Below are positions 2,809-61,975 of a DNA stretch of 64,000 nt, piece by piece. A model generated the notes under the pieces. It was not told where the DNA came from and made no database searches. It saw nothing but the letters and a program-made list of their open reading frames with translations. Each line of letters begins with the position of its first letter. Positions within the stretch are counted from its first letter, which is position 1. The position numbers were made by a program, and so were the translations under genes. The stretch is from an uncultured Phycisphaerales bacterium (lineage in GTDB: Bacteria; Planctomycetota; Phycisphaerae; Tepidisphaerales; Tepidisphaeraceae), in the NCBI GenBank assembly GCA_963844715.1, contig CAWJPJ010000007.1:1216001-1280000 (forward strand), written 5' to 3'.

Positions 2809-5385
2809 TTAATTATTGGGGTCCCGCGGCCCCCCCGCGCCGTCCTCTGAGGCAACAGTTTGCCATTGTTCGATTTCCGCGATCGTCTGCTCCTCACGAA
2901 CCGCCCCCGCGGTGTTTCCAGATCGCTCATAAATATCCGCCAACAGCCGATGCGCCTCCTTGTCATACGGCGCAATATAAACCGCCTGTAACGCCCTCGC
3001 CGCCGCCTGGTCCAACTCGTCGTGATCCCGATAGATCCGCGCCGCTCCCTTCGCGTACATATTGTTGTTCAATTCCACCCGCGCAAGAATGTCCAATTGC
3101 TCCGCCGCCTTCAACGGCTCGTTGACCTCCTTCGTGCCATACAGCCCCGCAAGTCGCTGATGCGGCAACACATCCATCGGCCTGATCTTCACGATCTCCT
3201 CAAACACCGGCGCCGCCGCCGCGTATTCGTGCTCATGAATCAGATCTTCCCCCTGTTCCCTCAGCGCTTGATACTTCTTGTCCGTAGCCGGGTCATATCC
3301 CCAGCTCGACACCTGCCCCTCGCACCATGCGCGAAATCCCGAAAAGAATGTCCCCTGGTCCATCTTGAGCGCATTGGTAAAAACTTCATCCTGCGTCCGC
3401 CCGGCCCGAAATTCCGCAATCATCCTCAATATCGCGCCATGCCCGTACGTCTCCTCGATATATTGGCAAATCCAGCTCGACTCCGCGTACGCCAATTGCC
3501 GGTCGATCGGCCGCCGCGGCCGCACAAACGCCCACGTCAACGAATCCAGATCAAACATCTCATTATGCGTCACCGCCCGATACAGCATCGGAACCCATTC
3601 CCATCGCACAGGCGTATGCTCCTCCTGAACCGCGAGCCCTTCCGTAAACCACAGCGGAATCCGATTTTCCGTCGCCCCCAGCGTCACCGTGTGCGTGAAT
3701 TCATGCCGCAAAACCTGCGTAAAATTGAACGTCCCCAGCGTCATCGCCCCCTTGCGCGGCGAAACCAGCGCGATTACCCGTCCCGTGCTGGCACCCACCG
3801 TTGCGATCCACGGCGACCCCGTCGTCCGCACCGAAAATGCATCGTGCGTCGGGAACACCTCGATCATCGTCTTCACCTTCGGCTCGTAGTTAAACGCCCC
3901 GCACACCTGCGGATAAACGCTCTCCAGATAGTCGCTGAAATATTCTGGAATGATCGGGTCCTGCTTCGCGTCATACATCACGATGAAATGCGCCGATTCC
4001 TTCGCGCAAACCCGTCCATCATGTCCAGCAGACGCAAATAGTTCGTTGTCTGCACGTTGAACGGATCCAGCGAATGCGCCGCTTCCAGCACCACCCGCGC
4101 CGAATCCTCATCCCCGCTTTGCGTGTAAAGAAGCCCCAGCCCGTTGCGCGCCGCCGCCCACCACGGCGCGCGATCCACGGCGATTTTGTACATCGCCGCC
4201 GACCGCGGATATTGCCGCATCGCCGCCAGTTGCTCCGCCACTTCGAAATATGCCGTTGCGCTGTTCGGCTGTAGCGCGTCGGCCTCTTTGAGATATTCCG
4301 CCGCCCGATCGTCCTTTAAAAGCAGAGATTGCGCTCCCGCCATCAATCCCAGCGCCTCAATGCTTTTCGGTCGCCGCTTCAGCACATCCTCCAGCAGAGG
4401 CAGCGCCGATTTCGGGGCCCGCTGCGCCAACAAATTCCGCGCCTGGAGCAGTTCCGCATCGATCGAATCCGGGTCGATCTTTCGAATTTCCGCCGCCGCA
4501 TGATCGGCCGCGTCAAAATTGAACTGCATGAGCGCGATCTTTCCCGTCAGCGCCCACGATCGGACGTCCGCCGGGTTCAGCCCCATCGCGCTGTCCAATT
4601 CCTCGATCGCCCCCTTCGGATCGTCGTGCAGCAGCAGGTATTCCGCCGCCGCCTCATGCGCCGGCCAGTAGTCCCGATCGATCAGGTCATACGCCCGCAC
4701 AAACATGCTCATCACCAGATCATGAAGCGATCGCTGCGTCTGGTACGTCATCGTCAGCGTCGCCCACCGATCGATCGCACGCCCGATGATCGTCACCTCC
4801 TCCGCGTCGTCGAACGTTTCCGGATGGCTGATCCATTGCTGCAAATAATTGTGCGGATCGGTCACGAACCACGCATACGCCCCCTTGGCGCCATCAAAAT
4901 CCCCCGCCTTTTCCAGGCAATCACCCAGGTAGTAATGCGGAGCAATCAGATCCGAATCCGTCGAAATCGACCTTTCGCAGCACGCCAATCGCGCCTTCAT
5001 AATCCGCCTCTGCCGCCAGAACTCTCGCCCGAAGCGTCTGCACCCCGGGGTCCGGCAGCGTCAATCCCGCCAGCGCCTCGTCATATCGCCCCAGTTCCAG
5101 CCGAGCTTGCCCACCAATCAGCGCCGCGTCGATCGGCTTGCCATTTCCCGCCAGTTCCAAAGCCACCAGCGCCCGTCGATATTGCCCCGCCTCCACCTGC
5201 AATCGAGCTTTTTCCAGCAGATTATTTTTATCGTAATCAGGATATTCCGGTTCCGGCGCATCCTCCGGCAGCAGGGGGGCAAGCCATTTCCCCGGAATCG
5301 TCTGGTCCTCGATCTCCCCGCCCCGCGCACCCGCGCAGGCCACGGCGACACACAACCCCGCCAGAAGGGTCGTCACTCGTTTCAT
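2809..5385 (-). CDS. Secreted TPR protein with peptidase MA-like zinc metalloprotease domain (split by ~2 frameshifts)
   Basis: Signal peptide MKRVTTLLAGLCVAVACAG; TPR repeats; VLRHEFTH...WFTEGLA (HEXXH plus E); consecutive ORFs 4921-5412, 3978-5000 and 2809-3981. Confidence 0.8.
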
Positions 5386-5437
5386 CGCCGGATTCCCGAA
5401 TGAGAGTTCCACGTTCCGCGGCTATTATAGCCGATAC

Positions 5438-6598
5438 ATGAGCACATTGACCGAACTGATCGGGAATGCCGATGCCTTTCCGATCCTTCGCCATCTGCAA
5501 TTTTTCAATCACGCCGGCGTCGCCCCGCTGCCCCACGCTGCCGCGCGAAGCGTTTCGCGTCTACGCCCGCCAGGCCGAAGCCGCCGCGTATCTCGGCTCC
5601 AACTGGTACCAGGACATCGAAAAACTTCGCCAAAGCTCCGCCGCTCTTCTCAATGCCCATCGCGATGAAATCGCCTTCGTCAAAAATACCAGCGAAGGGA
5701 TCAGCATCGTCGCCAACGGACTCGAATGGCAGTTCGGCGATAAGATCGTCACCACCGCCGTCGAATATCCCGCCAACATCTATCCATGGATGGAGACCGT
5801 CCGCGGCCGCGGCGTCAAACTCATCTTGGTCCCCGAGGAGGATTTCCGAGACGGCGCCCGCCACGTCCCGCTGGAAAAAATACTCGAAGCAGCCTCCGAT
5901 CCCCGCACCCGCCTCGTCGCCCTATCCCACGTCGAATTCGCCAGCGGCCAGCGCCACGACCTGGCCAAAATCGGCCAATTCTGCGGCGAACGCAAAATCC
6001 GCTTCTGCGTTGACGGCATCCAATCGCTCGGCGTCTTCCCCGTCGACGTCAAGGCCATGCAAATCGACTTCCTCTCCGCCGACGGCCACAAATGGCTCCT
6101 CGGCCCCGAAGGCGCCGGCATATTCTATTGCCGCCGCGAACTCCTCGAACACATCCGCCCCCTCATGATCGGCTGGATGAATGTCGTCAACGCCCAGGAA
6201 TTCGGCAACTACGACTACACCCTCCGCCCCGACGCGGCCGATTCGAGTGTGGCAGCTACAACGTCCCCGGACTCCTCGCCCTCAAAGCCTCTCTCGATCT
6301 CTTGCAATCCGTGGGAATCGAGCAAATCTCAAAGCGCCTCAAACTCCTCACCGACATCCTCATCGACGGCCTGCGAAAAAAAGGCTACCGCGTCATCAGC
6401 CCCCGCGACGCCGACCACTGGAGCGGCATCGTCAGCTTCGCCTCCCCCAGCCATAGTCACGACGAAATATTCGTCGATCTGCGCAAGCACCATCAGACCG
6501 AAATCGCCGTCCGCGAAGGCCGCCTCCGCTGCTCACCACATTTCTATAACACCGAAGCGCAGATCGAAAAACTGATCGAGCTCCTCCCGCCTCACTAG
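5438..6598 (+). CDS. PLP-dependent aminotransferase class V / cysteine desulfurase-like enzyme (frameshifted ~5535 and ~6237)
   Basis: FFNHAGVAPLP, NTSEGIS, VDGIQSLG, SADGHKWLLGPEGAG (PLP lysine), LRCSPHFYNT. Confidence 0.88.
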
Positions 6599-6628
6599 TG
6601 GGTTTCAGCGTCGTCCGCTTCCCTCTTT

Positions 6629-6669
6629 CCCCCTCTCCTGTACCCAGGGGGAGGGCTGGGGTGGGGGTT
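6629..6669 (-). repeat. REP-like palindromic repeat, copy A (left flank of DUF559 gene)
   Basis: Reverse complement AACCCCCACCCCAGCCCTCCCCCTGGGTACAGGAGAGGG; matches copies at 7071, 47525, 61841 and 61902. Confidence 0.85.
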
Positions 6670-6705
6670 CTTGACACGACCGGGAAATGCGCAAATCCTA
6701 CCGCC

Positions 6706-7072
6706 ATGCTCGGACGTCACGACGCGTCGCCGCGTCTTAAAACCCTCGCGCAAACCTTCGCGCCCAATCCACAGACGCCGAGCGAAAACTCTGGAGTCTC
6801 CTCCGAGGCGAACAATTACAAGGCCTTCAATTCCGGCGTCAGCACCCGATCGCGGGATATATCGTCGATTTCGTCTGCCTCAAGGGGAATCTGGTCGTCG
6901 AGTTAGATGGCGGGCAGCACACCGATCCGCAAGCTGCGACACACGACGCCGAGCGAACGCGACGATTGGAAGAACTCGGGCCTCGTGCGTCTTGCGGGTT
7001 CCAGACAATGAGATGTCGAAGGATCCAAAGGCGGTTCTGAGAACGATTCTTCGCCAGTTGGAAAGGCAATAA
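6706..7072 (+). CDS. DUF559 / Vsr-like endonuclease domain protein (frameshifted ~6765 and ~6985; not intact in the ORF track)
   Basis: Manual translation across shifts gives STDAERKLWSLLRGEQLQGLQFRRQHPIAGYIVDFVCLKGNLVVELDGGQH...HDAERTRRLEELG...LRVPDNE, the DUF559 FRRQ/VDF/ELDGxxH signature. Confidence 0.85.
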
Positions 7073-7111
7073 CCCCCACCCTAAGCCTCCCCCTGAGTAC
7101 AGGGAGAGGGG
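7071..7111 (+). repeat. REP-like palindromic repeat, copy B (right flank of DUF559 gene, inverted relative to A)
   Basis: AACCCCCACCCTAAGCCTCCCCCTGAGTACAGGGAGAGGGG, starting within the stop codon. Confidence 0.85.
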
Positions 7112-7112
7112 A

Positions 7113-8291
7113 TCAGAGACCCCATCCCATATAGTCACTCAACCCCGCCAGCACCAAATCCACCGATTTCTCCGCGCAATAGTAAACCGGACTCTGCGGA
7201 TTCAGGTATTCATCGATCCGATCGCCATCCAGAGTCACATTGCCCACTGATGCCCAATTCATTTGCGGGGCATCCAGCCCATTCCCCTCCAACAACGGCT
7301 TGCTCGACCTTACGATCCAGACTCGATCCGCCAGATTCTCCGCAAAAAAACTCCGCGCCAGCGACGGCCCCGAATCCACCAGCAGATGCACGATCGATCT
7401 CCCTCCCAAATCATCCAAAAGGTGAGTCAAGGAAAGACTCGCCGGTTTTTGCACAGGCGCATTCTCCCGCAACACCGCGACTTCCACGCCTCGCGCCCCC
7501 AGCGCCGCGACCGCCGCATGCCGCTGCCGGTAAACCGACTCGCCGCAATACACCAGCACCGGCCCTTCGCTCGTCGTCCGCGCCAGGTGGCTGTTCGGAT
7601 CAGCCGCAAATCGTGATCCAGCACAATTCGCAGCGGCTGCTTTTTGCACGGCGACCGACCGCGCCATCAGAAGTGGATCATCCGCCAGCGCCGTCCCGAT
7701 CCCAACCAGAATCGCATCACACCTTGCCCGCAACCCGTGAATCACATTGGTCGATGTTGGATTGCTGATCTGAATGCGTCTTCCCGCCGCCCCCGCGACC
7801 TTCCGATCCGCCGTCTGCGCCCATTTCAACGTCACATACGGCCGCCGATGCTCCATCCGCTTGAAAAACGCGGCGTTCAATTGCCGGCACGCCGCCCCCA
7901 GAACTTCCGCCTGTGCGTGGATCCCCGCTTCGCGAAGCTGATCCATTCCTCGCCCGGCAATCATCGGATTCGGATCCAGACATCCCGCCGCCACGCGTTT
8001 CAGCCGAGCCCGAATCAGCAACGGCACGCAAGGCGGAGTCTTTTTCTCTAAATGACAACAAGGCTCCAGCGTCACATACGCCGTCGCGCCCGCCGCCTCC
8101 ACCAGACAGCCCGCCAGCGCACCGCGGCTCCGCATGCGGCCCCCCAATTCCGCGTGGAATCCTTCCCCCAGAACCTTCCCCTCCTTGACGATCACGCACC
8201 CAACCATCGGATTCGGCTCCACCGCCCCGCGCCCGCGCATCGCCAGCGCGATCGCCCGCCTCATCCATGTCTGGTCATGTTCTCGTTCCAT
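7113..8291 (-). CDS. ribD: Riboflavin biosynthesis bifunctional deaminase/reductase (local compensating frameshifts)
   Basis: MRRAIALA..GRGAVEPNPMVGCVIVK, YVTLEPCCH..KTPPC, PYVTLKWAQTAD, CDAILVGIGTALADDP. Confidence 0.93.
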   Translation of the reverse strand: MEREHDQTWMRRAIALAMRGRGAVEPNPMVGCVIVKEGKVLGEGFHAELGGRMRSRGALAGCLVEAAGATAYVTLEPCCHLEKKTPPCVPLLIRARLKRVAAGCLDPNPMIAGRGMDQLREAGIHAQAEVLGAACRQLNAAFFKRMEHRRPYVTLKWAQTADRKVAGAAGRRIQISNPTSTNVIHGLRARCDAILVGIGTALADDPLLMARSVAVQKAAAANCAGSRFAADPNSHLARTTSEGPVLVYCGESVYRQRHAAVAALGARGVEVAVLRENAPVQKPASLSLTHLLDDLGGRSIVHLLVDSGPSLARSFFAENLADRVWIVRSSKPLLEGNGLDAPQMNWASVGNVTLDGDRIDEYLNPQSPVYYCAEKSVDLVLAGLSDYMGWGL

Positions 8292-8866
8292 CCGGGGCAT
8301 GCCCTTTCGACTCATCCATTTTATCCCCTCCAACGGCGCCGTAGCGGGCACGAGCAAGACTATGCAAAATCATGATCCCCACCCCAATGCACAATAGGCT
8401 GTCCGCCACGTTAAATATCCACGGAAACAGCCCCGGCCATCGCGGCAGGGCATGAATCATGTCCCGCACGTAGCCAAATCGCACCCGGTCATAAAGATTT
8501 CCCAGCACGCCCGCCAATAGCATCCCCAATACGATCTGGTATCCCCACCTTTTTCCGCTTCCTGAAAAAAGAAAGATCAAAAACGCCGCCGCCCCGACCG
8601 ATGCCGTAATAAAAAGATACCGCTGCCCCTGCCCAAGCCCGAATACCGCCCCTTGATTCGCCGTGACTTCAAAATGTATCCATCCCGGAATGAATCGATA
8701 CGGCTCCTCCGCGTACGCACGCACGCGCCCGTTCGGCAAACGTCACCACTTCAATTGCCAATTTCTGAAATGCCAGATGCTTCGTCCAGAGGTCCAACCC
8801 CACGCCCGCCGCCGCGGTCAAGAAAAATCGGCACAGAGCAGCGGGAGAACGCAAGGCGGAATGCAT
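8275..8866 (-). CDS. lspA: Lipoprotein signal peptidase II (frameshift ~8735)
   Basis: LDLWTK, NQGAVFG, GVLGNLYDR, VRDMI, FNVADSLL. Confidence 0.92.
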
Positions 8867-9472: not shown

Positions 9473-9640
9473 TAATCTTTCCTCTGCCTGGGCCGCTAAT
9501 GTCCCTTCGGTACGCCACTGGCGGGACCTTTTCCCCGTACCGCGACCAAAGGCGGTTCAAAATACGTCACACGCCGCCAACCTGTCAAGCCGCCGGTCGC
9601 GGTCTGGAACCTCGCCCCTCCCGGCGTTATGAATAGCCCC

Positions 9641-11638
9641 ATGAAGATCAGCCTTCAGTGGCTCGGCGACTTCCTCCCCCAGCCCCTCGATCCCAACCAG
9701 GCCGCCGATGCTCTCACCAACGCCGGCCTGCCCGTCGAGTCCACCGAATCTCACGACGGCGACACCATCCTCGACGTCGAAGTCACCAGCAATCGCGGCG
9801 ACTGCCTCTCCCACCTCGGCGTCGCCCGAGAACTCGCCGCACTCCTAAACCGCCCGTTCCACACCAAGAACCCCGAAGCCGCCCGAGACCGATCCCCCGG
9901 CCTCGAGCGCCGTCTCCGTCCGCATCGACGCCCCCCAGCTCTGCCCGCACTACACAGCCCGCCTGATCCGCGGCGTCAAAATCGCTCCCTCCCCAGATTG
10001 GCTCGCCAAACGCCTCCTCGCCGTAGGCATGCGCCCCATCAACAACGTCGTCGACGTCACCAACTACGTGATGTTCGAACTCGGCCAGCCCCTCCACGCC
10101 TTCGACTTTTCCAAAATCGCCGGTGGAAAGATCATCGTCCGCCTCGCCGCGCGCGGCGAAGTCATCACCAGCATCGACGGCCGCGAGCGCCAGTTAACCG
10201 CCGACATGCTCACCATCTCCGACGCCAATAAACCCGTCGCCCTCGCCGGCGTCATGGGCGGCGTCGATTCCGAAGTCTCCGATTCAACCGTCGACGTCCT
10301 CCTCGAATCCGCCAGATTCGATCCCCTCTCCATTCGAAAAACCGCCCGCGCCCTGGCCATGAAAAGCGAAAGCTCCTACCGCTTCGAGCGCGGCATCGAC
10401 CCCACCCTCCCCCTTCGCGCAGCCTCCGCGCCGCCCAACTCATCCTCCAAACCGCCGGCGGCAAGCTCCTAAAGGGCGTCGTAGCCGCCGGCTCTGAGAA
10501 TTTCGAGCCAAAAAAAATCGCCCTGCGCCTGCCCCGCCTAAAGCAAATCCTCGGCATCGAATTACCCAAAGACGAGGTAATCGCCGCCTTCTCCCGCCTC
10601 GGCTTTACACCCGTGGCCGCGGACGATCGCATCGAAGTCACCGTTCCTTCGTTTCGCCTGGATATCACCGCCGAAATCGACCTGATCGAGGAAGCCGCGC
10701 GCGTCCTCGGCTATCACCGAATTCCCACCCGCCCGGAAATTTCCATCCGCCTCGCCCCGCCCCACCCGCAATCGCTCACATCTGAATTAATTTGCCAAAC
10801 TCTGGTCGCCGGCGGTTTTTTTGAAGCCGTTACTTTCGGATTCGTGAGCGATCTTCTCCGCGGCGATTTCGGCGATTCAAATCTCCGCGCCGATCCGCAG
10901 CGCGCAGGGCGGATGCCACGCTTCGCGCCAGCCTTTTGCCGGGATTGCTCGAAGCCGTGAAATTCAACGAAGCGAACGGCACCGCCGGGGCCAAACTCTT
11001 CGAAATCGGGGCGACGTTTTCGGCGGCGCGGCGACTTTTCCGTCGACGAAAAACGAAAAGTCGCCTGCGTCGGGGGCGAAGATTTGCGCGAATTGCGCGG
11101 CGTCGTTGAATCGCTCCTGCGCCGCCTCGACGCGGATCGCGTGCTGCGCGTTATTCCGGATGCCGCGCCGGGGTTTTCCAAAAATGCCTGCGGGCGCGTG
11201 CAATGGGGTGATCAATCGCTCGGATTTATCGGCAAAGTCGATGCCGCCGTCGCGCAAAAGCTTTCGCTGCGGCATATCCCCGTCGCGGCGGAATTGGAAC
11301 TGGCGCCGCTGCTCCTGGCGCATTGGCACGTGCCGCAACTGAAAGAACTCCCCAAATTCCCCGCGGTGCGGCGCGATCTGTCCCTCATCGTCGCGGGCAA
11401 TCTGGCGTTTGAGAAAATCGAATCGCTGGTTCGCGGATTGAATCTGCCGGACCTGGAAGAGCTGGAATTCGTCACGACCTATCGCGGCAAACCCCTCGAT
11501 GCGGGGAAAAAGAGCGTAACTATCACACTGGTTTTCCGCTCCGCGACGGCCACACTCACCAGCGAACACGTCGAAAGTTCCGTCGAATCAGTCGTTAAAA
11601 CGGCGCAGCAGCAGCTAGGCGCGACGCTGCGCACGTAG
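9641..11638 (+). CDS. pheT: Phenylalanine--tRNA ligase beta subunit, short form lacking the B2 OB domain (several frameshifts)
   Basis: [68 protein letters not shown]...[16 protein letters not shown]. Confidence 0.95.
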
Positions 11639-12360: not shown

Positions 12361-12399
12361 CCGGACGTTTCGGGAAGTGACCCCGTTTTGACCGCCTTT
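12361..12399 (-). repeat. Dispersed ~35-bp site, copy 1 (inverted partner at 44238)
   Basis: Reverse complement AAAGGCGGTCAAAACGGGGTCACTTCCCGAAA matches 44238-44269 at 30 of 32 positions. Confidence 0.75.
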
Positions 12400-13385: not shown

Positions 13386-13447
13386 GGGAATTGATTTGGA
13401 TCATACTTGAAGGGAACGGGCCCACCCAAACCGGTCGTTCTTAACAG

Positions 13448-13556
13448 CATTGGCACAGAGGACACAGAGTGCACGGAGGGCACAGAGAAAAGAGAAATAA
13501 ATTCTATTGGTTTTTTCTCCGTGCACTCTGTGTCCTCTGTGTGCTCTGTGCCAATG
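13448..13556. repeat. Long palindrome built from 9-nt tandem units (CACAGAGNN)
   Basis: CATTGG-CACAGAGGA-CACAGAGTG-CACGGAGGG-CACAGAGAA ... TTCTCCGTG-CACTCTGTG-TCCTCTGTG-TGCTCTGTG-CCAATG. Confidence 0.85.
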
Positions 13557-13632
13557 TTTTTGAACAAGTCACTCGGCGCAGCGGGCGTGCCGTACGGCGG
13601 ATGATACTTGGCGGACGAGGAAACGCGTGGCG

Positions 13633-13701: not shown

Positions 13702-13774
13702 GGCCCCGTCGTCTAGAGGCCTAGGACACGGCCCTTTCAAGGCCGCGACACGGGTTCGAATCCCGTCGGGGTCA
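13702..13774 (+). tRNA. tRNA-Glu (anticodon TTC), CCA not encoded
   Basis: Acceptor GGCCCCG/CGGGGTC; anticodon arm CGGCC-CTTTCAA-GGCCG; T-loop GGTTCGAATCC. Confidence 0.96.
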
Positions 13775-19490: not shown

Positions 19491-19574
19491 GTTGGAGAAA
19501 TCCGACACCCGAAACCAGAATGACGAATCAAACCCGAATGCCTAAATGAACGAAATGGCTGTTTCGATCATTTA

Positions 19575-20468
19575 GAGCCTCTAACAAAAATGCGAATGAA
19601 GCCTGTTCCAACAGATCATTGCCTCACCCACGGTCATGAACGCGGCGTGGATGTCGGGCCGTTTTTCGTAACGGACTCGCAGTCGGCGATTCTGATGCAA
19701 CCAACTCAGCGTACGCTCCACCGGCCAGCGGGTTTTGCCAAGACCACTTCCGTGCGGGCGGTTGCGTCGGGCCAGCAACGGGCGGCTGCCACGCTGACGC
19801 AACGCCTTTCGGTGCGGTTCGGAGTGATACGCCCGGTCTCCCTGCACCACCTCGAACCGCCAGCGCGGCCGGCCCGGTTTGCCCGAGACCTTTGGAATCG
19901 CATCGATCAGCGGCAGCAGTTGCGTGATGTCGTGGCGGTTGGCCGCCGTCAGGAGGGCAACCATCGGCGTGCCGTTGCCATCGGTCAATACATGGTGCTT
20001 GGAACCGTTTTTCCTGCGATCTACCGGGCTCGGACCCGTTTTTTTCCCCCGTGCACGGCCCGCACGGAAGCAGAATCCACCAAGGCCCGCGACCAGTCGA
20101 TGGCATTCGACCGCCGCAATCGATTCAGCAATAGTCCGTGCAGCTTCGTCCAAACCCCACGATGGTTCCAATCGCGCAGTCGACGCCAGCAACTCATGCC
20201 GCTGCCGCATCCCATCTCCTGGGGAAGGTATTCCCACGGAATGCCGGTTTTGAGCACGAACAGAATACCCGACAACGCCGCGCGATCGTCCAGCGGCGGC
20301 CGGCCGCGCTTTCCTGGACCACTGCGGTGCTTGGGAAGCAGGGGTCGGATCAACTCCCAAAGCTCGTCGGTCACCAACGGCTTGGTCATAAAGCCCTCCA
20401 TGGCTAAGACCAAGCCGTATTGTCCGATCAACCATAAACATGGGGAAGTGCATTTTTGTTAGAGGCTC
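19575..20468 (-). mobile_element. IS5-family insertion sequence (IS402/IS427-group-like), 894 bp
   Basis: Perfect 19-bp terminal inverted repeats GAGCCTCTAACAAAAATGC; TTA target duplication at 19572-19574 and 20469-20471. Confidence 0.95.
19581..20389 (-). CDS. IS5-family DDE transposase, two overlapping ORFs joined at a G5A7 slippery site (~20039-20050)
   Basis: OrfA LVTDELWELIRPLLP...GRPPLDDRAALSGILFVLKTGIPW...VDS; OrfB GPSPVDRRKNGSKHH...GDRAY...RWPVERTLSWL...RRL.VRYE. Confidence 0.93.
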
Positions 20469-20547
20469 TTAGTCATTTGGTCATTGATTCTGATTTCGGG
20501 TTTCGGGTTTTAGCGGTGATGGGTGCACTGCGAGTACAATTCCCCGC

Positions 20548-23891: not shown

Positions 23892-23948
23892 CCCCTCACC
23901 CTGTCCCATCCTGCGGAAACTAGCGGAGGCATGGGGAGAGGGGATAAA
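23892..23948 (+). repeat. Degenerate REP-like copy C
   Basis: CCCCTCACCC...GGGGAGAGGGGATAAA; shares its ends with copy F at 61902-61975. Confidence 0.55.
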
Positions 23949-44237: not shown

Positions 44238-44276
44238 AAAGGCGGTCATAAAGGGGTCACTTCCCGAAATGACCGA
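44238..44276 (+). repeat. Dispersed ~35-bp site, copy 2
   Basis: AAAGGCGGTCATAAAGGGGTCACTTCCCGAAATGACCGA; inverted match to 12361-12399. Confidence 0.75.
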
Positions 44277-47524: not shown

Positions 47525-47566
47525 AACCCTCACCCCGGCCCTCTCCCTGGGTACAGGGAGAGGGGG
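47525..47566 (+). repeat. REP-like palindromic repeat, solo copy D
   Basis: AACCCTCACCCCGGCCCTCTCCCTGGGTACAGGGAGAGGGGG. Confidence 0.85.
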
Positions 47567-47575
47567 AAGAGCGAG

Positions 47576-56105: not shown

Positions 56106-56179
56106 AAATGCGGAATGCTGAATGATGAATGCTGAGTGCTGAATTAAATTCATCATTCAGTGTTCATCATTCAGCATTT
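56106..56179. repeat. Palindrome built from 7-nt tandem units (AATGCTG/AATGATG)
   Basis: AATGCGG-AATGCTG-AATGATG-AATGCTG-AGTGCTG-AATTAAATT-CATCATT-CAGTGTT-CATCATT-CAGCATT. Confidence 0.85.
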
Positions 56180-61765: not shown

Positions 61766-61840
61766 AGTAAGGCTCTCGAATCGCCGACAATTCCCCTGCA
61801 ATCGGCGGAGGAACGACGCGGCGGACGCCTTCTTTTTTCT

Positions 61841-61975
61841 CCCTCTCCCTGTACGCAGGGAGAGGGCAGGGGTGAGGGTTCTTTCGGTCCGCGCGGATCG
61901 TCCCTCACCCCTCGCGCAGAACCTGGCGGAAGACGAAAGAGAGTGCTCTCCCCGAGTACAGGGAGAGGGGATAAA
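61841..61975. repeat. Inverted doublet of REP-like repeats (copies E and F)
   Basis: E: CCCTCTCCCTGTACGCAGGGAGAGGGCAGGGGTGAGGGTT; F: CCCTCACCCC[insert]CTCTCCCCGAGTACAGGGAGAGGGGATAAA. Confidence 0.8.

Follow-up and report, generated by a model that had tools for sequence, protein, structure and literature searches.

Our analysis of a 64-kb window, the whole stretch of DNA studied here, identified a cassette of ~0.5 kb in which a small gene encoding a DUF559 protein lies between inverted copies of a repeat that, by its sequence, is a long-loop GTAC variant of the BoxC/PIT/triplex-motif family. The DUF559 protein is a predicted Vsr/EDxHD nuclease under purifying selection, and the cassette likely represents the enzyme-bearing form of a slow, transposase-free selfish element. 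On balance, we consider it slightly more likely than not that the repeats are spread or maintained by this nuclease. BoxC/PIT/TMECO repeats have been known since the 1990s with neither a function nor a mobilizer, and a 2015 survey that counted 3610 copies in 262 genomes mentions, in its accessible text, neither ycjD nor a nuclease and describes the motif as having no mobility genes nearby (PMC4666352). Our own literature search, with most subscription papers and bioRxiv supplements outside its reach, found no report that links DUF559 or ycjD to BoxC.

Anatomy and coding content of the cassette

The cassette is intergenic and lies between two convergent genes, a class-V aminotransferase to its left (5466..6598, plus strand, stop at 6598), which is frameshifted in the assembly, and ribD to its right (7113..8357, minus strand, stop at 7113). 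Its left end (6627..6673, minus strand) and right end (7067..7112, plus strand) have 46-nt arms (6628-6673 and 7067-7112) that are 80% complementary, with 393 nt between them. At both ends the hairpin is outermost and the C/G tracts point inward, so that on the left the G-tract faces the DUF559 gene. The gene itself (6706..7072, plus strand; ~122 codons, two indels) starts with an ATG at 6706 and stops with a TAA at 7070-7072, within the right arm, which also abuts the ribD stop. An earlier note on this DNA had described inverted hairpin repeats around a DUF559 gene, a right copy lying over its stop codon, a TTGACA at the left copy and convergent housekeeping neighbors, and all of these features were recovered here, the TTGACA at 6671..6676 (plus strand). 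This hexamer may serve as a -35 box: TTCTTGAC is kept in three sister cassettes, ~35 nt upstream of the ATG, and TTGACA/TTCTTGAC could represent the -35 box of a leaderless transcript. Consensus scans of the cassette detected neither a sigma-70 promoter nor a terminator, an Rfam scan of the window returned one tRNA and nothing else, and no methylase gene was present among the neighbors of the window cassette that were examined.

DUF559 is the sole domain above the cut-off in the ~122-123 amino acid protein, and its middle segment by itself matches PF04480 in a profile search (E = 2e-27). E27, D56, E67 and H73 are invariant in the alignment, with D69 and D82 nearly so, and the window copy keeps the whole catalytic set within the middle segment. 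A profile search against solved structures retrieved 3HRL (E = 3e-38), the nuclease domain of I-Bth0305I (E = 7e-7) and PvuRts1I (E = 0.015); a single-sequence structure model was poor (pLDDT 52.6). Four of six pairs gave dN/dS values of 0.07-0.15, the other two being saturated. The view expressed earlier that DUF559 has no assigned role is outdated, as there are genetic data for Caulobacter VsrA (CCNA_02930), which contains DUF559: it causes SOS in cells that lack the cytosine methylase, its over-expression gives no SOS induction, and a role in T:G mismatch repair has been proposed for it (PMC12907096). No vsrA orthologue was singled out among the Caulobacteraceae loci included in our analysis.

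When the window gene is aligned with its closest homologue and with the intact paralogue, its two indels fall near 6751 and near 6982. Both are probably assembly errors, the gene being intact, since one short-read contig (156 nt, depth 2.5, otherwise identical) has an extra base at 6751, the neighboring housekeeping genes are likewise split relative to congeners, single indels account for most of the differences between the assembly and near-identical contigs, and the middle DUF559 segment shows a dN/dS of 0.07 against the nearest homologue. The earlier note had asked whether the frameshifts are real; the first is called into question by this one contig, and the second, for which an assembly error is less secure, lies at a site outside coverage, the short reads being from four DNA runs of one study that cover the locus patchily. 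It should be noted that the assembly is indel-prone, with frameshift-split housekeeping genes at positions 2809-5412, 5466-6598 and 9629-11638 of the window.

Inverted ends around DUF559 genes and gene-less copies of the repeat

All three PF04480 matches of the genome sit between inverted BoxC ends, and these three DUF559 cassettes are the only hairpins-out pairs in the genome with a gap of 100-3000 nt; among 200,000 random 350-bp segments, 12 were bracketed in this geometry. The enrichment of flanking repeats that had been anticipated for DUF559 homologues extends well beyond this genome, as inverted flanks were found at 105 of 155 homologous genes and at none of 578 control windows. At an inverted-repeat score of at least 36, they were present at 46 of the 79 best GTDB homologues, 17 of 21 class loci, 12 of 18 phylum loci and 30 of 37 Caulobacteraceae loci, compared with 0/434 shifted control windows for the first three sets and 0/144 for the Caulobacteraceae, whose genomes contain up to 8 DUF559 copies. 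This test was based on local alignment of 200-nt flanks. For the first three sets, loci with short flanks were left out, and lower thresholds of 24 and 30 led to an equivalent result, the controls then giving 33 and 4 matches, respectively.

Co-variation of repeat and protein, also proposed earlier, holds in part: the upstream flank had its own downstream flank as best match in 45 of 121 loci, but flank similarity correlated modestly with protein identity (rho 0.30), and close pairs accounted for the effect. Of 19 genomes of the family, 16 have GTAC loops, compared with 0 of 3 from other families, where the cassettes are without GTAC too. The cognate rule is broken in G171, which carries 121 dispersed copies with GTAC loops and a full cassette without. 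The recognition of a GTAC-loop hairpin put forward in the earlier note is therefore not general, as the cassettes of other families, of Caulobacteraceae and of E. coli carry other loops. A left/right asymmetry in linker type would have accounted for the A+B doublets of E. coli but was weak (5/39 upstream versus 15/44 downstream; p = 0.04 uncorrected, and p = 0.36 for TAA alone) and was set aside. Alignment A3 comprised the paralogue and 48 of the 79 fetched loci. In G151 (G151:C35:14584-14720; L206), a complete doublet lies inside the right end of a cassette, and its left arm is identical to the left end of that cassette.

A profile search (E ≤ 0.01) yielded 172 non-overlapping copies of the repeat in the 4.55 Mb genome and none in a shuffled genome. 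The repeat had been called REP-like; its sequence is instead that of the BoxC/triplex motif, and both cassette ends parse as C9-loop-G9-N3-G9 blocks with one or two mismatches. The strict TMECO pattern, with a first loop of 3-6 nt, has no match in the genome, where loops measure 7-12 nt, which makes these repeats a long-loop variant and not TMECO proper; a TMECO pattern with a relaxed loop finds 81 genomic copies. When applied to MG1655, a near-identical pattern recovered exactly its 23 sites, with 4 of 5 doublets arranged hairpins-out. GTAC is present within 143 of the 172 copies.

The gene-less copies of the window comprise a single copy at 47525..47568 (plus strand), an inverted doublet with its left arm at 61837..61880 (minus strand) and its right arm at 61902..61972 (plus strand; an extra module lies between C-tract and hairpin), and a variant copy at 23893..23945 (plus strand), in which an extra module replaces the GTAC loop. 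Of the gene-less recurrences listed in the earlier note, those at 47525 and 61841 (61837..61880 here) stand as profile matches, and those at 23892 and 61902 turned out to be variants with an internal module, the former missed by the profile. A module of ~30 nt occurs inside many BoxC copies, either in the linker or replacing the loop (23893-23945, 61902-61972 and G000:C4:77717-78330), and may represent either a second element or a variant with a double hairpin.

Close inverted pairs are hairpins-out in 27 of 28 cases, which correspond to 24 short doublets (spacers of 10-66 nt, mode ~20) and the three cassettes; the geometry of the cassettes thus matches that of the gene-less doublets. There are two repeat subfamilies, each with its own cassette, and the arms belong to the same subfamily in 19 of 19 typed doublets (expected 9.9; five of the 24 doublets were untyped and dropped, and the subfamilies were defined after inspection), for which arm-to-arm conversion could be an alternative origin. 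Single copies have a partner C-tract on their inner side in 28 of 94 cases and on their outer side in 3, which suggests that many of them are decayed or variant doublets. We detected no target-site duplication in 27 pairs, where the longest direct match of the outer flanks averages 4.6 compared with 4.3 when permuted, and where old copies could have lost such duplications.

The doublets also bear on whether a RAYT or other HUH transposase spreads the repeats, the link to DUF559 being incidental. Five RAYT-like Y1_Tnp (PF01797) genes are indeed encoded in the genome, and in G165 (L071, L182-L185) a REP-like inverted repeat of ~40 nt additionally encloses both the cassette and the doublets, the latter joining left-type to right-type ends of that same cassette. 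However, none of the five Y1_Tnp genes is flanked by BoxC, in agreement with the earlier description of a system without a RAYT; each has different ends of its own, and the nearest BoxC copies lie 1.3, 8.8, 9.1, 21 and 90 kb away. Moreover, outer palindromes were present around 0 of 27 doublets of this genome, at which shared outer flanks were also not found. This explanation is largely refuted here, and we consider it extremely unlikely. The Y1_Tnp gene at G000:C7:856148 is flanked by a repeat that also occurs in the window, at 12362-12399 and 44238-44275, and that is likely part of a RAYT-like/REP system apart from BoxC.

Based on a crude gene model, 12 of the 172 copies lie mostly within predicted coding segments and the rest are intergenic, with neither a strand bias relative to transcription (60 versus 51) nor an excess in convergent gaps (25/160 versus 442/2830). 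Both null results argue against an action at the RNA level, in which the protein would bind or cut BoxC transcripts, including its own, and the repeats would be processing signals. The same holds for the statement that the purine-motif triplex does not form in RNA (PMC4666352). Features that speak for such an action are the left G-tract, which in 20 of 38 cassettes has an in-frame start codon within 20 nt of it, the complementary ends of the mRNA, and the published case of the Vsr-like RNA-binding protein FASTKD4. Taking both sides into account, we judge this possibility to be very unlikely.

Further short-repeat structures were observed in the window and in other genomes. A long hairpin of short repeats at 13443-13561 (57-nt arms, 5-nt gap) adjoins the tRNA gene at 13702-13774, a hairpin made of 7-nt repeats is perfectly placed between two genes at 56114-56178, and 27-nt inverted arms surround an IS5-type-looking transposase at 19567-20476, within another short-repeat hairpin. 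Nested palindromes occur in G168 (L175-L179), where BoxC doublets lie within hairpins similar to that at 13443-13561. Genome G145, with 330 pattern matches, contains long tandem arrays in which BoxC types alternate (G145:C1:569368-570562 and 798921-804286), similar to REP mosaic arrays.

Probable movement of the cassette and co-occurrence of gene and repeat

The aminotransferase and ribD are adjacent, separated by 11-152 nt without a repeat, in both congeners and in three family members, and a repeat follows the aminotransferase in 0 of 25 relative loci that include an aminotransferase end. A second cassette, on C8 and with the intact paralogue (G000:C8:678010-678330 region), lies between mutM and moxR, a site that is empty in 5/5 relatives examined; a 7-nt direct match around it is compatible with chance. 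Empty sites, which the earlier note had suggested looking for in close genomes, thus exist for both cassettes. The window protein clusters first with a homologue found in another genome, and the C8 paralogue joins next (supports 96/93 and 98/94). Different genes surround the closest homologue, and the closest named homologue comes from a Tepidisphaeraceae (Planctomycetota) genome. In addition, the six long frames examined carry DUF559 in frame inside tRNA synthetases, HsdM, HsdR, a Mur ligase and a DUF1156 protein. Taken together, the empty sites, the homologue at a different locus and the in-frame copies suggest that the cassette moves, slowly. Both congeners have the third cassette, on C4, in one of them interrupted; three family members lack it, with two degenerate hairpins remaining at the site in one. 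Since this cassette has stayed at one site across the genus and 164 of the 172 repeat copies are unique in sequence, any activity is slow.

Three additional observations concern these loci. The DUF559 gene of a C4 cassette orthologue is split by a ~3 kb insertion (G152:C7:3263-6421; L205, L211), and a leucyl-tRNA synthetase (L107) contains two separate in-frame DUF559 domains. An apparent joint skipping the C8 cassette proved to be a doublet from another locus and was discarded.

Gene and repeat also co-occur. At least 15 pattern matches were present in 10 of 14 class relatives with a standalone gene and in 1 of 23 without (n = 37; the unpublished G154 is among the 23 gene-less genomes, supplies one locus each to the aminotransferase-end set and the flank test, and is not the sole basis of any conclusion). 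Across the phylum (n = 150), at least 5 matches were found in 10 of 20 gene-bearing genomes versus 6 of 130 without the gene. Twelve complete E. coli genomes showed 15-28 BoxC copies in the six with ycjD and 1-13 in the six without ycjD at its usual locus. Fisher and rank tests overstate these differences, because the sampled genomes are related. ycjD is present in 3378 of 5426 E. coli genomes, the eef operon filling the site elsewhere, and its presence tracks phylogroup (10.1101/2024.08.01.606150). One E. coli strain has an intact BoxC lying across the ycjD stop; K-12 lacks the upstream end of ycjD and retains the downstream end in partly deleted form.

In several phylum genomes that carry the gene but show no match, the ends are variants missed by the pattern; the number of pattern matches is also low, at 0-1, in the gene-bearing G187, G163 and G137. 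Four genomes that are 90-95% complete (G168, G005, G066 and G144) have 11-64 copies, yet a search relaxed to E ≤ 10 retrieved no standalone DUF559 from any of them; G168 has 64 copies in regular doublets at 95% completeness. The repeat-rich G028 has a DUF559 fragment only. The gene is rare on plasmids (37/72,556 records; the 20 matches listed are 0.2-4.9 Mb in size) and on phages (2/50,697 records).

The existence of repeat-rich genomes without the gene would fit DUF559 being a passenger, that is, a host very-short-patch repair nuclease, with slippage, template switching or another enzyme moving the BoxC ends. VsrA, which has the same catalytic spacing, an SOS phenotype and a proposed role in T:G repair (PMC12907096), points in the same direction, and Holder et al. 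tie the repeat itself to local instability. Nevertheless, DUF559 is the sole gene-sized cargo between inverted ends in the genome, three times over, and the pairing of gene and repeat holds across phyla, whereas two canonical Vsr genes of repeat-rich genomes show no such ends when their sequence is read. As in-frame insertion into essential genes would also be unexpected for a repair gene, we consider a mere passenger unlikely.

It is also conceivable that causation runs in reverse, the nuclease resolving folded, fork-stalling BoxC so that gene-bearing genomes tolerate more copies, which it maintains without copying them. Co-occurrence, purifying selection and rarity on plasmids and phages are all compatible with this idea, as is the reported stop of polymerase at the motif in vitro. 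Since it leaves unexplained why the gene is bracketed, why there are new sites relative to congeners and why doublets mirror the cassette subfamilies, we regard it as decidedly unlikely.

A possible mechanism and its relation to known systems

The simplest account of the bracketing, the new insertions, the matching doublets and the co-occurrence is a nuclease that targets the folded ends of its own cassette. Whenever replication or transcription leaves it single-stranded, the G-rich strand at either end would fold into a hairpin plus a third strand, and the nuclease, probably as a dimer, would nick at the folded ends. PD-(D/E)XK hydrolases are not known to form a covalent intermediate. As a hydrolase without strand-transfer chemistry, the nuclease would leave it to host break repair to paste the unit into new sites, which would explain the missing target-site duplications. 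It would also act in trans on doublets, which would later decay to single copies. We regard this cut-and-host-repair route specifically as rather doubtful. A physical triplex has been demonstrated by CD and NMR, for E. coli motifs only (PMC4666352).

As a wider proposal, which we consider less likely than not, BoxC and DUF559 could constitute a bacteria-wide, transposase-free mobile element, in which the nuclease would recognize and cut triple-stranded ends and seed thousands of doublets as well as in-frame insertions in essential genes, with ycjD as the BoxC mobilizer of E. coli. BoxC has hitherto had no known partner gene, and with a candidate enzyme at hand the question can be tested in E. 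coli K-12, ycjD being naturally present or absent in the species. If true, a large DUF family would gain a role, the REPIN-RAYT design would have been reached convergently with unrelated chemistry, a protein of ~120 residues could be a structure-specific (triplex or hairpin) nuclease, and the VsrA phenotype of Caulobacter would need to be re-read.

Comparison with known systems places the repeats close to BoxC/PIT/TMECO, with which they share the order of a C-rich 9-mer, a loop, a G-rich 9-mer, a 3-nt linker and a second G-rich 9-mer, as well as the intergenic location, the lack of strand bias and the inverted doublets; they differ in their longer, GTAC-centered loops. The protein resembles VsrA, which likewise contains DUF559, matches in catalytic spacing and shows a DNA-damage phenotype in vivo (PMC12907096). 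Flanking repeats, however, are no part of the accessible text of the VsrA paper, and no methylase gene adjoins the window cassette. I-Bth0305I has a homologous nuclease domain, in whose crystal the D196A position aligns with D56 and H213A lies one column from H73 (PMC3239194). Like EDxHD homing endonucleases, which insert selfishly into conserved genes (PMC3239194), DUF559 cassettes are found in conserved genes, but their protein is without N-terminal DNA-binding repeats and is associated with neither an intron nor an intein, and the cassettes have inverted ends that would fold, many unrelated sites and non-autonomous derivatives. The cassette is thus not a homing endonuclease in the strict sense.

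Gene-bearing and gene-less forms with common inverted ends are also typical of MITEs and their parent insertion sequences, from which the present system differs in having no transposase in the cassette, no detected target-site duplication and highly diverged copies. A parallel in design is REPIN-RAYT, where an enzyme gene likewise lies within inverted repeats, gene-less inverted doublets have variable spacers, a diverse, old repeat population forms cognate subfamilies, and the system is chromosomal and rare on plasmids (10.1101/2021.07.10.451892); DUF559 is rare but not absent on plasmids and phages. Here, the flanked gene is PF04480 and not an HUH/tyrosine transposase, and the repeat sequence is unrelated. 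Moreover, RAYTs are single-copy genes that do not move themselves (10.1101/2021.07.10.451892), whereas DUF559 is multi-copy (three in this genome) and occupies new loci, including in-frame positions inside genes, with two sites empty in congeners. The cassette system therefore works like REPIN-RAYT without being a member of it.
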